Source of the DNA: Candidatus Methanophagales archaeon
Lineage (GTDB): Archaea; Halobacteriota; Syntropharchaeia; Alkanophagales; Methanospirareceae
Direction of reading: 5' to 3'
Assembly (NCBI GenBank): GCA_024699715.1
Contig: JANPRD010000010.1
Coordinates: forward strand, 39,159-103,158
DNA length: 64,000 bases
Part shown: positions 4,577 to 64,000 of the stretch, piece after piece
How the letters are laid out: the number at the start of each line of letters is the position of its first letter
Numbering within the stretch: the stretch's first letter is position 1
Position numbers and translations under genes: made by a program
Notes under the pieces: generated by a model
The model's database searches: none
What the model was told of the DNA's origin: nothing
Seen by the model: only the letters and a program-made list of their open reading frames with translations

Positions 4577-4633
4577 GACACTCAAATATCACTCAAATTT
4601 GAGTATATAAAGGTTGCGTTCGCTGCCCAAAAA

Positions 4634-7600
4634 TTAAAGATTCACCCTCACGACATTTCCATTCAAAACCGCAGATTCAGGAACTTCAACATTGCGTTCA
4701 ACATCCCACACGACCGTGTTGTTCTCAAAATGACCTCGCCGCAGATTGTATGTTGAGGCGCAAACTGTGTAATTTGTGCCGCCTTCTGCGGGGCTTATTG
4801 GGCTCGGGCATTCCGTTGAATAAGGAACAACGAAAGAGAAAGAGCCGTTTGAGAGCATTCGCTGTGCGTAAGTGAAGGTTCTTCCACGACTTGTCGTGAC
4901 ATTCGTTGAGATTTCAACGATTGAGCCTGCGGGTGCGCTGCCAACAACACGAGCACCCTTCACATATTCAAAAACTTTCACAAATTTCAGCTCATCTCCG
5001 CCGAAAGTCGCAACCGTTGAAGGCGATTCATGCACGAGTCTGTAATGCTTGAGCGGCTCAACAAACTCATTCTCGCTGAGTGCGAAGCCTCTGCCGTCAA
5101 AAAGGTGCAGTCTTATCTCCATAGACCTCCAAAATTTCGGCTTCCGCACAACTCTTGTCCCATTTTCAGTCCATACTTGCATGCAGTAGTTCGTCGTTGG
5201 CTCGCCTGCCCACACAGGATACACCCAACATGTGAAATCAATCATTCTGAAGTCAGAAATGACATAGCGAGAGCCGAGTTCATCAAGAATTTTGTTTGCA
5301 ACGCTCTCATTCTGCGCCAAGAGGAACTCGCAAGCCCCAGGTATGAACGCAAGGATTCTTAAAGTGGCATTCTTCGGCGGTGTCTCGCCCATTAAGACCT
5401 CGTCGCCATCCGTGAATCTGCTATTTCCGTCTTTGTCTGCGACAATCGCCTCACCTTTATCATATTTATAGTTATCATTGGCATCGTAATACATCTCATC
5501 TATGCTGAAACGCCTGAGTTTTGCGTTGATTGGGACTTCGCCGAACAAAGCTTCATCTTCATCCGTAAATTTACCGTTTCTGTCTTTGTCTGCGACGATT
5601 GCCTCTCCTTTTGAGTATCTGCCATCTCCGTTTGCATCGTAATACTTCACAACAGGAGGACCACCTATTCCCGCTTGGAATGGGTTAGCGTTAGGGATGC
5701 GATGTCCGATGAATGTGATAATATGCCCGTAGTCCCACCAACTCATCACACCATACGCACTTTCGGGATAATCGTAGCGCCCCGTCGTCTCATTCAGTTC
5801 GTATGTTGTGTAGTAATCAACTCCAGGGTCAGGCGTGTTATTTCGCATCCATGTCAGCGCATCATACCAGTCATCAGGGGCGCCGTGCCACCTTTCTGAC
5901 GCTATTGCGAGAGAATAATGGACACAAGCGGGCTCTCCTGCGGGAACTCCGAGCGATTCTGACGGTGTGAGGGCGTTGAGCGGAAATGGAAAGAGAATGA
6001 AAGTAATGAGGAGCAAGGAAACGAGAGACCTGCGCAAATTCTTCTCTTCTTTTCGTCCTTTCTCCCTCGCTTGCTTCCAGAAGAGCAGAAGCAGTAAGAG
6101 GAGCAACCATGGGATTAAAGCGGAGATGCCGACATACTTTATTCCTGCGAAAAGCGCTGCGAAAACGCCTGTGGTGAGAGCGATGAGTGGCAAGTCAAAC
6201 GCCTCCTTCTCAGCCTCAACTCGCCCCTTCTTCTTCACGCCACCTTTCTTCTTACGAGCTGCTCGCTGCTCCTTTCTTCGTGCCTCCGCATCCTCCGCAG
6301 CAGCACCGCTCTCTACGATTTCGTAAGTTTTCGTTGCGAAGAGTCCTGTCAGGATGGATGCGTTCACCGCAAGGTAGTAAGCGAAGCGGTTTTGACCCAT
6401 GCCAGGGATTAGGGCGCCGACTGCTGCGAGTATGAAAAGACTCCAGAGGAGCATGAGCAGATGTTCGGGGCGACGACGCTCAAAAAACATCCATGCGAGG
6501 TATGCGAGTGCGAAGTATGAAATAATCAGCGTTATCGGTTCAGCTACGAACCAAGCCCAGCCACCCTCAAAAAGCGGATGCGCCTCCGCAATCGTCAGAG
6601 CGCCGCCCCTGGGCGTGAGTGCGCCGAAAGCACCTAAAACGCTTGAAACAACAGAAGGAGCGAGAACAGAGGCAAACACTGCGACGAATGCAAGCGTGAG
6701 TAGAGGCAAGAAAGGCGTCAATTTCTCGCTGAATCCGCCCGTTCTTCCGACAACGGCACCTCCTCCGCCCGTAACTTTGCCTCCTTTGTTTGCATCTTCA
6801 CTCGCACCCAAAGCACGCTCCTCCCTGCGCCGCAGTGCGTATTTGAAAGCGAGAGGCGCTGAAAAAATAATGAAGCCGAGAGCAAATGTCGCAATATGCT
6901 TTTCGTTGTAAAAAGTGGATAGATTGAAGAAAGGAGCAAGCATTATCAGCGGAATAATGAACTCAAATGCAAGAACTTTGCACAAATAATCAACATCTTC
7001 TCCGCTAACTGCATCAATAATATACTGAATAATGCCGTAAATGAATATTATGAAACGAACATGAGACCTGCGACCCACATTAAGAGGTAAACGCCGAGGG
7101 ATATGCCTGCTGCGAGCGTGAAGAATAGTGGCTTTGCCTCTTCCCTCACGAAAATTGCGAAAAGCGGGACGAGGGCGAAGAAAATGAATGAGACGAGGAG
7201 ACCCCAAGCCCAAGGCAGAGCGAGAATCGGGATGATTGCGCCAGCTGCGAAAACGAGAACCGCCCAATCCCTGCGAGGCTCAATAAAAAATGCTGACTGC
7301 TGCTCCTTCGCATGCTTCACTGCGAGAATGAGGAAAAGCATCGCAACCGTGCTGAACAAGGACTTCGGCGACATGGTGGTCGCAGTAGCCGAGAATTGAG
7401 CGTGAGAGGAACTGACCTGGTATAATTGCAATCAAAGCGGCGGAAATCAATCCTGTTGCACGGTTATGAATCGTTTTACCGATGAAATATGCGGGGAAAA
7501 CGACGCAAGCTCCGAGAATTGCGGGATAATATGCTGCTATTGCATGCGTTAATGCAAGCGTTGGACGCCCAGCGCTTACAATCCAAGGTGCAAAAATCAT

Positions 7601-8333
7601 AATTTGGTCATAAAGAGGTGCGAAGTGCAGGTGACTACCAAACGGGAAGTATGTGAAAGCGTCGTAGAATATGCGGAAGGGGAAGTGGTCGCCGAAGAGT
7701 GCGTTCTCCACGAGACGCATGTGAAACACGGGGTCATCCGAACCGAACCTCCAGACACCGCCACGAAAAACATGCTCGTATGGAAGGAAAGCCCTCAAAA
7801 CGAGTGCAACGCCGAAAATTGACCACAATATGTTGAAAATTGTCAGACGGGACGCAAGCTCGGAAGAGGAACGCTCTGATTCATTACCACTACGCTTCCA
7901 GAAGCCCTCTCGTCCGAAGCATGAAAATTGCAGGAATGCCCGCACAAATCACCGTAACGACAACTGCAGGATTGAAATCAATGTGAAAATGCGGTGCAAA
8001 TGCCACAACAATCGGATATGCGAGGATTAAAAATTCAAGAGGAGCGAGCAGAATGGAGAGTTTCGGCTGAACGAGGCCTTTCCAGAGCAGAAAAGCGAGA
8101 GGAATGCAGTAGGCGCCGAGAATTCCAAAAAAGATGTTCAACGGCTTCGCCCCCACCACAGAAAAAAGCGATGAGATGCCACAAAGGGCGAGTAGCGAAA
8201 CTGCTGTAATATGCTTGAGTTCTTCAAAATCTTGCGCTTTTTCCTCCGCACTCTCCTTCCTCGCCGAGTTTCTTTTTGCGTTCCTTGCGTTTCTTGAGGT
8301 TCTTCCGCTCACTTTCTCTGAAGGCTTCAACAC
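4634..8333 (-). CDS. aglB: oligosaccharyltransferase AglB (STT3), split by about 3 frameshifts
   Basis: DPVFHMR, DHHVAE, TIAEAHP, QNRFAYY, SWWDYGH and NPFQAG motifs spread over ORFs 7280..7945, 7048..7431 and 4634..7267. The membrane ORF 7890..8333 is probably a fused N-terminus. Confidence 0.9.
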
Positions 8334-60879: not shown

Positions 60880-62182
60880 TCAGGTTTCGCAAGGGAAACC
60901 CAGTAGTCTCGGAGGGATTATTTGATGCCTTAGGAAATCTCCGAAAGTCTCACGCTCCCGCACAAGTTCAGCTCTTCCGTTGCTCACGAGAACCTCAGCA
61001 CAGCGAGGTCGCATATTGTATTGCGAGCTCATTGAGAAGCCGTAAGCACCGACATCTAAAATTGCGAGTATGTCGCCTCGCTCTACCGGAGGAAGCCTCC
61101 TCTCTCCGAAAATGTCGCCTGACTCGCACAGCGGACCGACAATTGTGTATTCCTCCGCAGGCTCAACACCAATCTTGTTCGCAACGAGAATCTCATGGTA
61201 AGCACCATACATCGCAGGTCTCACGAGGATGTTGAAGCCTGCATCCACCGCAACAAAGTTCTTAGCAGCTCGCTTCACCGCTTGCACTTTCGTTAGCAGA
61301 ATGCTCGCATTACCGACAATTGAGCGTCCAGGCTCCAAAATAAGCTTCACAGGCTCCTTCAAGCGAGCAGATTTGAACGCAGGCATGAATGCGTGAGCGA
61401 GGTCTTTCGGCGTCGGGGCGTTCTTTTTCTCCGAAGGCGTGTAGCCGATGCCGAGACCTCCGCCCAAATCCACGAAATCAATTTCAAATTTTTGTTGAAG
61501 ATGCGAAGCGATGCGCAGCATTTTCTCGGCAGCCTCCCTGAAAACGCTCAATTCAAAAATCTGCGAGCCGACATGGCAGTGAATACCGCAAAGTGCGAGA
61601 CCTCGCCTCTCAACATAACTGCAGGCTGCGAAGACTTCCTCCGCTGGAATGCCAAATTTTGATGTCTTGAGTGCAGTCGCAATCTTCGGGTGTGTCCTCA
61701 CCGAAATCTCAGGATTCACTCGCACCGCAACCCTCACACGCTCATCCTCGCTTACAGAACCTTGCGACATCCGAGAGAGCATCCGCCTCGTCTGTGGAGT
61801 CTAAACACACGCAGACGCCTGTCTCAACCGCAAGACGCAGCTCATCCTCGCTCTTCGCATTCCCGTTGAATATAATTTTTTGCGGTGGGATGCCCGCAAG
61901 CATCGCAGACTTCAACTCAAAATCAGAGACGACATCCGCACCTGAACCCTCCGTAGCGAGTATTCTCAGGATTGCGAGGCTCCAGTTCGCTTTCACCGCA
62001 TAGCAAATCTCAACATCCTCAACAACTGCGACTTCTTCCTTGAATGCGCTGAACGCCTCCTTGTATGCTCTGAAGTTCTCTCGCACCCTCGCCTCGTCCG
62101 TAACTATTAAGGGAGTGCCGAACCTCTCCGCAAGCTCCACTACATCCACTCCGCCGAAATGCAAATGCTCGCCTCCTTCCAC
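60880..62182 (-). CDS. lysA: diaminopimelate decarboxylase, frameshift near 61760
   Basis: YAVKAN, SKFG, HCHVGSQ, DLGGG, EPGR, CESGD, GAYG. Confidence 0.95.
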
Positions 62183-62340
62183 ATCTCCTTAATTAAGAAA
62201 CAAAAGAAAAAGAGTGAGGAGAACGCTGTGTTGAGATGAAAGATATAACATGCTCGCTCATGCGCTGCGGTCGGCAAGGTCGGCAAGGGCGTTACGAAGC
62301 GCTGAGGATGTGCAATTAAGTTCCACATTTAGATTAGTAA

Positions 62341-62378
62341 GTAAACTACCCTCTCCCTAACGGAAGAGGCTTTGAAAG
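62341..62378 (+). mobile_element. isolated IS200/IS605-like terminal hairpin remnant
   Basis: GTAAACTAC-CCTCTCCC-TAAC-GGAAGAGG-CTTTG resembles the GTCAACTACCCC...GGGGCTT ends; no transposase nearby. Confidence 0.4.
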
Positions 62379-62421
62379 GCGGAAAACCCTGCGGGGAATT
62401 ATCGCATAACCTCCTGCAATG

Positions 62422-62512
62422 TCGCCTAACGTCTGGGCGTATCCGAAGTTCCAAGCGAAGTGAGGAATTTGGACGGAGCGATAGCGAAGTCGGATATTCA
62501 CCTGTTAGGCGA
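62422..62512 (-). mobile_element. attC-like integron cassette recombination site 1
   Basis: TCGCCTAAC...GTTAGGCGA perfect 9-bp IR containing the RYYYAAC/GTTRRRY cores; inner GTATCCGA/TCGGATAT L boxes. Confidence 0.75.
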
Positions 62513-62521
62513 TCTGGACAT

Positions 62522-63901
62522 TCATATGAATTTGAGATCTCCCTTGGCATTCACAATCCATTCTGAATGCAGTGGCCCCTCTTTTAAGGAGCCATCTGGT
62601 TCAAGGAAAGCATGAAGTCTAAAAGGTGCATTTTTCTCATTTAACTTAGATTGATATCGCCCAACTACCTCAATTTCTTCACTTTTATAGCCTATGGAAC
62701 CGAAGTAAGATTAACATCTTAGTTCTCACTTTTGCTTGAAGAATTTTCATGCAATCGTAATGCCAATCTGTCATTAGAGCTTCTGCCTTGTAATCAAGCT
62801 TACCTTTAAGTATAACAGTCAAATCCCCAATACTGCTATCTTTTCTTCAGCGTCTGGTACGATCAGAGATCCTTTAGCTTTATCAACCTTTATATATGCT
62901 TCAAACTCCAGTGATCCCTCTGCAATCCCATGATTTGGAAATCCTTTGTCTTCTTTAAAATTGGGTTCACTTATATGTATTTTAGCCCTGTAGGGAGCTT
63001 CACTCTCAGGTCTTAATCCTATGAGATGCATACACATCAAGATTAAGACGAAGAAATCCGCTCTGCTGTTAAGGTAGGCATATGCGGCGGTAGCTCCTAC
63101 TTCTACCATGGATCTCTTATCTCTCAGTTTTCAAGGTTTGATCGTATGAATGTCTCTCCTCTCTTTTCCGCTGTTTTCCATAACTCAATCCCTTCTCCTC
63201 AATGAGATCTGGATCGGTAAAGATTATATCTCAGAATATTCTACTCTACTCCGTTAGCTATCTGGTCAGTATTTTGCACCCCTCCTTCTCCTTATAGCGG
63301 CAGATATAGAGCGAAAAAGTTGTAGAAGGTTACTGGAATCCAACATTTAGAAGGTAAACTGATTCTTAGTTGTACCCATATAGCGAGTACGCTTCCTCTA
63401 ATAGCTTTATTGCTCTGGGTCTTACAATTCCCAAAATTCTCCCTATCCTGTCAGGATCAGCTGGTCACCCTAAGATGTTGCCGTTTGTTCCTATCATGTG
63501 CCAATTCAGTTATAGCTGTGAAGAATGAACAGCATACTCCGCTATCGTCGAGCCCTATTTAGCAATGCCAAGGTCTTTGTCAGACGCTTAATAGCACCTT
63601 CTAGGGTTACAGTCCATCATTCATCCAAAGGCGTGGCTATTTCTCCTGTAAACCATGAATTGTATCCATCAAACTCGACTGCGTCAACCTCCATTCTCTC
63701 ACTAACTCGACAGGATCCAGGATTTGTTTGCCATAAGCCTTCCATGGATAAAGAGGGCATCTTCTACGGCATGATGCGTCCGTAGGACAGAATCATTTAG
63801 AGCACTAGAGCGTCTTATCATTGCATCTTACGCGGATACATTTTACCAGCTCGAAGGGCTTCTGCTATGAGTGTACATTTTTTCCGGGTCAATTTCCTCA
63901 T
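62522..63901 (-). pseudogene. decayed AT-rich gene cassette content between the attC sites
   Basis: GGGTGA followed by ATG at 63901 just after attC2; fragment ORF 62819..63109; start-less frame 62710..62522 ending 11 nt before attC1. Confidence 0.5.
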
Positions 63902-63923
63902 TTCTCACCCATAAGAGTACATG

Positions 63924-64000
63924 TCGCCTAACAGGTAGCGGGTATGCGAAGCCCGTAAGAGTTTGGGTGAGCAATAGCAAACCGCATACATGCTGTTAGA
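63924..64000 (-). mobile_element. attC-like integron cassette recombination site 2 (cut by the window end)
   Basis: GCCTAAC...GTTAGA cores, inner GTATGCG/CGCATAC, homologous to site 1. Confidence 0.75.

Follow-up and report, generated by a model that had tools for sequence, protein, structure and literature searches.

We analysed a 64,000-nucleotide stretch of DNA (the window) from a Candidatus Methanophagales archaeon (assembly GCA_024699715.1, contig JANPRD010000010.1; G000:C14:39159-103158, where G000 is the organism's own genome, assembled to a completeness of 80%, and C14 the contig, which extends 6.6 kb beyond the window end). Near the end of the window, between a lysA-like gene and a HcyBio gene, lies an array of three attC-type recombination sites and two cassettes. 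The three sites fall within 2.1 kb and share one orientation, the minus strand being the sense strand of the cassettes. Positions past the window are given in the numbering of the locus L002 (window position minus 60000). The distal (last) site, attC1, occupies 62419..62515 on the minus strand (97 nt; 78.7 bits with the covariance model R1 described below), with R'' as the complement of 62504-62512, R' as the complement of 62422-62430 and an inner stem formed by 62439-62446 and 62490-62497. The second, attC2, also on the minus strand, is cut by the window end (63921..64000 in the window; full site 63921-64006, or L002 3921-4006; 86 nt; 67.1 bits), its R' being the complement of 63924-63932 and its R'' starting at 63995. 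The third, attC3 (L002 4462-4551), lies 0.46 kb past the window end and has degenerate cores. Between attC1 and attC2 is cassette A (62516..63920, minus strand; GC content 0.414), which contains no intact long open reading frame (ORF), and between attC2 and attC3 is cassette B (L002 4007-4461; GC content 0.40), which holds a retropepsin-like aspartic protease gene (PF13975) whose frame (L002 3905-4393) runs through attC2. A further remnant after attC1 (62320..62418, minus strand), with GGAGG, ATG and an early stop, is specific to G000 and probably represents the cut-off beginning of a further cassette that has been lost.

A preliminary description, made from the window sequence alone, had reported two elements beginning with ATGTCGCCTAAC and ending in CTGTTAG, and both features are exact: ATGTCGCCTAAC occurs at only two positions of the window, 62419 and 63921, and CTGTTAG closes attC1 (62502-62508) and attC2 (63993-63999). 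When up to two mismatches were allowed, ATGTCGCCTAAC had 11 matches, compared with a mean of 3.14 in 100 shuffles, none of which reached 11. The common motifs GTAT(C/G)CGAAG (GTATCCGAAG/GTATGCGAAG) and GAGC(G/A)ATAGC(G/A)AA (GAGCGATAGCGAA/GAGCAATAGCAAA) were present as described, and so was the compensatory change from C-G to G-C between the complementary inner arms, GTATCCGA/TCGGATA(T) in one site and GTATGCG/CGCATAC in the other. The outer arms, TCGCCTAAC (62422-62430 and 63924-63932) with GTTAGGCGA (62504-62512) or GTTAGACGA (63995-64003), fit the RYYYAAC/GTTRRRY cores of attC sites (PMC5027507). Read along the minus strand, each site opens with R'' (TCGCCTAAC or TCGTCTAAC); a short spacer leads to an inner arm and the variable tip, after which come the complementary arm, a longer spacer and R' (GTTAGGCGA). 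On the ORF strand the cores are GCCTAAC/GTTAGGC in attC1, GTCTAAC/GTTAGGC in attC2 and GCCCGAC/GTT-GCGA in attC3.

The pattern TCGYCTAAC-N45-110-GTTAGRCGA matched 13 sites, in nine of 101 related genomes (among them G000); the reversed pattern, run as a control, matched none. R1 was trained on 13 copies, attC1 and attC2 among them, and recovered copies outside the training set, such as attC3 (53.8 bits) and C15:38577 (61.6 bits). In an alignment of 37 copies fitted to R1, which favours the structure of the model, 88.4% of the cells pair, compared with 74.9% in shuffled alignments (0/500 reached the observed value) and 20-44% once the partners are slid. Of the 37 copies, 30, 35 and 37 respectively retain the three AAC/GTT pairs. 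Compensatory double changes occur in five of the nine R-box pairs and seven of the eight inner-stem pairs; two further supported pairs lengthen the inner stem to 10 bp, and in this extended stem nine of the ten pairs show such changes. The covariation score was not reached by any of 500 shuffles. The slid controls and the R-box variants recognized by eye (CACTTAAC/GTTAAGTG compared with CGCCTAAC/GTTAGGCG) argue for a real pairing signal despite the model-fitted alignment.

The complement of the ORF strand was the more stable strand in 33 of the 37 copies, by a mean of 2.1 kcal/mol (DNA parameters), and the ORF strand contained more C than G in all 37; better folding and a nucleotide skew have been described for the bottom strands of attC sites (PMC5027507). 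The tip is formed by two small hairpins linked by a conserved CTTCGCCCAAAT and ACTTC, and in most copies, as judged by eye without a count, a GGAGG-type motif and a start codon follow within approximately 10-30 nt of the site. A conserved ATGGCAAC before R'' was considered as a part of the site and rejected, since most copies lack it and it belongs to the retropepsin cassette, whose 3' end it forms. Their cores, covarying stems and size, and the better folding of the strand that complements the ORFs, mark the sites as attC-like. They resemble those of bacterial integrons and of attC-site clusters without integron-integrases (CALINs) in being imperfect palindromes of 86-97 nt (known attC sites measure approximately 57-141 bp) with R''/R' cores, an invariant AAC/GTT, a variable tip and an inner L pair conserved in structure and not in sequence, in the better folding of the ORF-complementary strand, in the placement of one site behind each ORF, and in a cargo of toxin–antitoxin (TA), defence and unknown genes.

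The sites differ from bacterial ones in the loop that separates the R from the L box. Counted by model columns, this spacer has 3 nt on the R'' side (29/37 copies) and 7 nt on the R' side (28/37), or 1 nt and 5 nt with the two extra pairs included, so that the family has 1-3 nt on one arm and 5-7 nt, the surplus, on the AAC arm, whereas canonical sites have 5-6 nt on each (PMC5027507) and each arm of the aadA5 attC, read from a class 1 integron, has 5. No conserved extrahelical G/T was seen in the family, and the two-hairpin tip is a further difference. The spacers had been described as longer than the canonical ones, which is true of one arm, but the other arm is shorter; given this non-canonical spacing, the suggestion of a distinct attC class was a fair reading. 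On a class 1 integron, R1 detected neither of two canonical attC sites (best match 9.2 bits, out of register). R1 is thus family-specific, and this result is silent on whether canonical models would miss the sites described here.

Further copies had been expected, and R1 found them: in G000 there were 18 matches at E<=1 and seven at E<=1e-7, and the copies outside the training set include, besides attC3, two on contig C15, three on C1 and three on C13. The C15 cluster has one cassette with an ApeA-type gene, the C1 cluster a retropepsin followed by a RiboL-PSP-type HEPN gene, and the C13 cluster a retropepsin remnant followed by an HSDR_N-domain gene; G000 also has single copies of the site, and each copy bounds a different gene or ORF. 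The retropepsin-like cassette is present three times in G000 (L002 3905-4393; C1:58432-58809, or L054 1433-1810; C13:136922-137158, or L056 2923-3159), always as the first of its small array and with its frame entering its attC site, and the last ~15 nt of a retropepsin-type gene also precede attC3. Across the lineage, the site family was detected in 69 of the 101 related genomes (R1, E<=1e-7). Of 60 genomes from the taxonomic family of G000, 53 have it, as does every sampled member of four neighbouring families; at this threshold it was absent from many other families of the phylum. In G079, a complete genome of the same phylum (1.1 Mb, single contig), the copies lie at at least 12 loci. Chromosome-wide, 16 of the 18 R1 matches in G079 are on the plus strand, a marked strand bias.

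Dispersal over several loci in G000 and at least 12 in G079 would also be expected of repetitive extragenic palindromes (REPs) or of elements resembling miniature inverted-repeat transposable elements (MITEs), and the constant position of the copies at ORF 3' ends on the sense strand, together with their strong structure, would suit structured 3'-end RNA elements or terminators behind accessory genes. Several details of the sites speak against both. The copies differ widely and none are near-identical, each stands behind a different sense-strand ORF, and their flanks carry no target-site duplications, so that the MITE-like scatter which the preliminary description had named as a contrary outcome was not seen. 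AAC/GTT is invariant inside an otherwise covarying R box, and in its 3' half R' varies according to the cassette that follows, as is the case for chimeric attC sites. As set out below, the same 12-mer ends an attI-like block beside a recombinase gene, and the homology between species breaks at GTT. No T-run follows the hairpins, and a search of the 10.6-kb locus against Rfam (E<=1) gave only a chance snoRNA-like match of 23.3 bits. We therefore regard an origin of the sites as some other repeat as highly unlikely.

The preliminary description had found the DNA between the sites to be AT-rich and tolerant of GATC, and this was borne out. The island has a GC content of 0.40-0.41, compared with 0.52 in its flanks. 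Although GATC is rare in G000 (352 sites compared with 5807 expected; observed/expected 0.06), 12 of the 16 GATC sites of the 64-kb window are inside the 2.1-kb island, ten of them in the 1405 nt of cassette A, and the flanks have none in 12.2 kb, where 44.9 would be expected. The cassettes of the island are thus compositionally foreign. Other palindromes are shunned in G000 as well (fraction of expectation: GATC 0.06, CTAG 0.02, GTAC 0.02, GGCC 0.04, TCGA 0.11). Approximately half of the 352 GATC sites form 23 clusters, most of which have no attC-like site in their vicinity (C2 2-37 kb, C9 9-15 kb and C7 87-89 kb are examples); the clusters probably represent further foreign islands.

The records nearest to the HcyBio protein were those of Ca. 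Alkanophaga volatiphilum (94% identical over the matched part) and of Ca. Methanoxibalbensis ujae (69%). In the Ca. Alkanophaga volatiphilum locus (L038), HcyBio is followed by the same non-coding stretch as in G000, a conserved attC3 (7685-7776), an intact gene for an SDH-type protease, a site that is short and degenerate, an MNT gene accompanied by a truncated HEPN-like ORF, the same junction TTAATTGCAC and lysA. The flanking DNA of G000 and L038 is 95-97% identical on both sides. Homology from the HcyBio side ends inside attC3, at GTT, and from the lysA side it resumes at 62319, at the junction TTAATTGCAC. Between shared anchors, these two close species thus carry different cassettes, and the homology breaks at the crossover point expected of an integron-type exchange. 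TTAATTGCAC is the distal boundary of the variable region in both species (window 62310-62320; L038 9445-9455), and beside it each species has a cut-short cassette gene, which in L038 is the HEPN-like ORF and in G000 a stub of two codons; the shared boundary suggests deletions anchored at one point.

Comparison with L038 also bears on the content of cassette A. A ribosome-binding site and an ATG shortly after attC2 had been proposed on the minus strand, and an ATG (63901-63899) is indeed found 19 nt after attC2 with GGGTGAG before it, but the frame that it opens is only a short remnant. By blastn, cassette A matched the L038 protease gene over 184 nt at 81% and 208 nt at 77%, whereas tblastn with the L038 protease gave no match in the island. 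Cassette A is a decayed copy of the ClpP-like SDH-type serine protease gene that is intact (292 amino acids) in L038.

The array is set among ordinary archaeal genes. On the left, the lysA-like diaminopimelate/ornithine decarboxylase-type gene (60880..62182, minus strand) is a host gene with no GATC. It is split into overlapping ORFs of 300 residues (60880-61782) and 146 residues (61742-62182) that match successive parts of PF02784, which is a frameshift, an assembly error or a pseudogene. On the right, the homocysteine-biosynthesis gene HcyBio (PF01837; L002 4868-6241) is followed by CutA, ribosomal protein S24e, RNA polymerase subunit E' (RpoE') and PEP synthase, all on the minus strand, and 317 nt of non-coding DNA separates attC3 from HcyBio. 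This stretch (L002 4552-4868, window-equivalent 64552-64868) is single-copy in G000, conserved in Ca. Alkanophaga volatiphilum and holds one GATC; its central 230 nt are strongly structured on both strands (z -3.0 and -3.7) and have no Rfam match. Metagenome contigs from 4/4 runs include forms in which 214-218 nt of the stretch are missing (4600-4605 to 4818-4820), and it may be a small insertion of some unassigned kind. ARAGORN found no tRNA at the locus.

The array had been expected to continue beyond 64000, with intI and attI on that side. One more cassette and the degenerate attC3 do lie there, but the 6.6-kb remainder of the contig contains neither intI nor attI, and host genes follow. 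No recombinase gene was found in the 10.6 kb examined or elsewhere on contig C14, and in the whole of G000 a search with TIGR02249 and a tblastn search with a relative's recombinase gave only a 27-residue tyrosine recombinase remnant on C13, 81% identical to the C-terminus of the relative's enzyme. Having two or more attC sites within 4 kb of one another and no IntI nearby, the array is of the CALIN type, and attC1 is its distal end, as the preliminary description proposed; that description was confirmed in what it observed and right in the kind of element it proposed, and it was wrong about what lies past the window. We consider it very probable that the two sites of the window are the distal two of three attC-type recombination sites framing two foreign cassettes, a CALIN in the chromosome of an Alkanophaga-like archaeon. 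On C13, the recombinase remnant is followed by a degenerate repeat block ending in AAGTTAAGTGAAAT, two AT-rich ORFs and a site with R' = GTTAAGTGAAAG, an arrangement that looks like the wreck of a complete platform.

In the related genomes, TIGR02249 picks up a multi-copy recombinase, often at contig ends. Seven such recombinases scored 168-243 bits, all below the cut-off of 265, and six of the seven passed the NCBIfam model NF040815 (XerA_Arch), on which scores of 207-257 were obtained. The closest solved structure is the Vibrio integron integrase VchIntIA (IntI4; PDB 2a3v, 169.5 bits), XerA in the PDB scoring 137, so that the bit scores are ambiguous on a placement with IntI or Xer. The enzyme is 34.3% identical with IntI1 over residues 71-345 and has an N-terminal SAM-like domain (PF13495) and a catalytic domain (PF00589), which it shares with VchIntIA and IntI1. 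It differs from these integrases in missing the IntI-specific insertion, with 25 residues where VchIntIA has 67 and a gapless alignment with XerA in this region, and in an extra N-terminal domain of 65-90 residues, which scored above the Pfam gathering threshold for HARP in one of four sequences (27.0 compared with 25) and more weakly in two; its gene is, moreover, oriented in the same way as the cassettes. HARP is a fold that recognizes DNA junctions. Unlike archaeal XerA and its dif site, these recombinases are multi-copy and stand beside cassette arrays, and the sites are hairpins of ~90 nt and not 28-bp dif sites. The family is large, and its members are 60-87% identical across archaeal groups and one bacterium. 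Relatives on plasmids of Chryseobacterium and Clostridium (41-47% identical) are annotated 'site-specific tyrosine recombinase/integron integrase', and those from Chryseobacterium include the N-terminal domain.

Sites of the attC-like kind follow this recombinase gene repeatedly. Same-strand attC-like sites were found after it in G049, G065 (3-4), G079 (2), G099 (3), G051 C75 (3-4), G051 C3 and G028, within 0.4-1 kb of the gene and also further on, and no attC-like sites were found upstream of the recombinase genes. In five genomes, six of the seven recombinase genes with enough downstream contig head arrays; the seventh, which scored lower, is probably a different recombinase. Among the cargo that the arrays of the relatives carry are MNT/HepT, a TIR protein, DUF2283, a radical SAM enzyme, superoxide dismutase and acetyl-CoA synthetase. 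Directly after the recombinase stop codon, four of six aligned loci have a GGTATATAC/GGATATACC repeat block that ends in (A/G)AGTTAGGCGAAAT or GTTATATGAAAT, the same 12-mer that ends attC sites, so that the attI-like site of the relatives terminates in the attC core GTTAGGCGAAAT. A degenerate copy of the block follows the recombinase remnant in G000, and no such block is present at the array of the window. The repeat block is a putative attI.

Folded hairpins are known substrates of Xer recombinases, and the passing of XerA_Arch by six of the seven enzymes would also fit an integrative mobile element exploiting Xer (IMEX-like; compare the hairpin attP of CTX phage), in which the recombinase and one hairpin are mobile and the other copies are scars. 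One listed record, in which a plasmid relative of the recombinase adjoins an IS91-family transposase, points in the same direction. Such an element would, however, be hard to reconcile with arrays of 3-4 sites in which unrelated one- or two-gene units stand behind one recombinase, with the lack of attC-like sites upstream of the recombinase genes, or with cassette content that differs at a fixed chromosomal locus between close species, and we give it very little credence.

A second alternative is that the array is an ordinary CALIN with standard attC sites, whose canonical IntI is unassembled, lost or supplied by other organisms, the recombinases without the IntI patch being unrelated Xer-type enzymes. 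The canonical cores are in its favour, as are the 80% completeness of G000 and the published archaeal integrons, most of which are CALINs and whose attC sites can be recombined by bacterial IntI1 (PMC9668308). In addition, a frameshifted IntI fragment with the typical IntI-specific sequence, the sole one in the 101 genomes, lies on the minus strand of a 1.8-kb contig (L032 1-700; G051:C339), where it may represent contamination or a genuine second system. That fragment is broken, and its tiny contig, in a metagenome-assembled genome (MAG) with 3% contamination, has no attC-like site. The ordinary-CALIN explanation is further opposed by the failure of all 101 genomes to pass the IntI cut-off when 69 have the sites, by the patch-less recombinase that repeatedly heads arrays with an attI-like site bearing the attC core, and by a loop geometry unlike that of canonical sites. 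We judge this alternative unlikely. An absence of IntI from the lineage had been named beforehand as an outcome that would count against the integron interpretation; it points instead to a different IntI-like recombinase and not to spurious sites. On sequence grounds, the enzyme of the family is most likely an IntI/XerA-like tyrosine recombinase with a HARP-like N-terminus and no IntI insertion, and not a classical IntI.

Several results weigh against reading these sites as an integron-type system. At the level of the sites, the unpaired spacer is not ~5-6 nt on each arm; the surplus loop bases are on the AAC arm of the better-folding strand, whereas the two or three extrahelical bases of canonical sites are on the L'' arm, opposite the bottom-strand AAC (PMC5027507); no conserved single-base bulges were identified in the 37-copy alignment; and attC3 is degenerate. 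At the level of the array, cassette A is a pseudogene and the G000 copies are at at least six loci instead of in one array. With regard to the enzyme, no integrase above the TIGR02249 cut-off was found in G000 or in any of the 101 related genomes, and the link between recombinase and sites is one of adjacency only. Finally, no recombination product was seen in metagenome contigs from four runs. Some contigs do have joints that skip cassette A (2498->3938 in X2, and 2433->3938 in X5 across 2 intervening letters) or cassette B (3972->4527 in X1 and X2, across 8 intervening letters). No run covers half of the stretch, however, the tabulated sides of the joints measure 29-35 letters and match at 90% likeness, and there are several copies of the site; with such short sides the joints may stem from paralogous sites, and they were not counted as evidence of recombination. 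The contig depth of cassette and flank was likewise not usable as evidence.

If these sites act as known integron sites do, the ORF-complementary strand (the plus strand of the window) would fold when single-stranded, tyrosine recombinase monomers would bind the R and L boxes, and cleavage would take place at AA|C of the folded strand. Exchange between two sites would free a cassette circle, exchange with the attI-like site would insert one, and the product would be resolved by replication. That recombination occurs, on this strand and by this enzyme, we infer from the analogy. In the classical enzyme the IntI patch holds the extrahelical bases, and here a recombinase with no IntI patch goes together with sites that have no extrahelical bases and a one-sided loop; the HARP-like domain is, speculatively, a candidate reader of the asymmetric loop junction. 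Because the assembled 80% of G000 contains no intact recombinase, the array of the window is probably inert, a frozen remnant, unless an enzyme is supplied in trans.

Archaeal integrons were first reported in 2022, from 75 MAGs with six integrases, and contamination has been a standing concern (PMC9668308). As in that survey, the present sites come from archaeal MAGs, have TA and defence cargo and belong to attC sites that are more alike within an order, and in the relatives the attI-like block is immediately downstream of the recombinase gene, as attI is of intI (PMC9668308). The survey accepted only IntIs matching an IntI-specific domain profile (PMC9668308), whereas the array-heading recombinases described here lack the IntI-specific insertion; the array of the window, in contrast, is on a 110-kb contig with archaeal marker genes. 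Smyshlyaev et al. (2021) describe the insertion as 'not fully conserved' in their integron-like subgroup. The main text of the 2022 survey does not mention Halobacteriota, ANME, Syntropharchaeia or Methanophagales, and an overlap through its supplementary genomes is possible (PMC9668308). In a search that extended to published descriptions and not to the genome lists of that survey, we found no account of these sites or of the link between recombinase and arrays in this lineage.

Taken together, the results allow the tentative proposal, which we would not yet call probable, that a branch of archaea (Alkanophaga relatives, anaerobic methanotrophic archaea of group 1 (ANME-1), Syntropharchaeales and outliers in the phylum, with close relatives of the recombinase in a bacterium) runs an integron-type system on an integrase that never acquired, or has lost, the IntI domain and has a HARP-like domain instead, its attC sites having a loop asymmetry opposite to that of classical ones. 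If this is true, the IntI insertion would be no prerequisite for cassette recombination, standard tools that demand the insertion would mislabel complete platforms as CALINs, and the system could be either ancestral to the known integron or a form parallel to it. The findings suggest that integron integrases may at present be defined too narrowly. The family would also provide a testable case of a tyrosine recombinase that chooses a folded DNA strand without the IntI patch. For the archaeon itself, the position of the array among archaeal housekeeping genes, the break in the extreme GATC avoidance and the difference from the sister species amount to clean evidence that cassettes turn over in the chromosome of an archaeon. 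The distribution of the sites and their association with the IntI-like enzyme suggest that surveys may greatly understate how common cassette platforms are in anaerobic alkane- and methane-oxidizing archaea, and the platforms may offer a route by which defence and toxin–antitoxin genes pass among uncultured sediment archaea.

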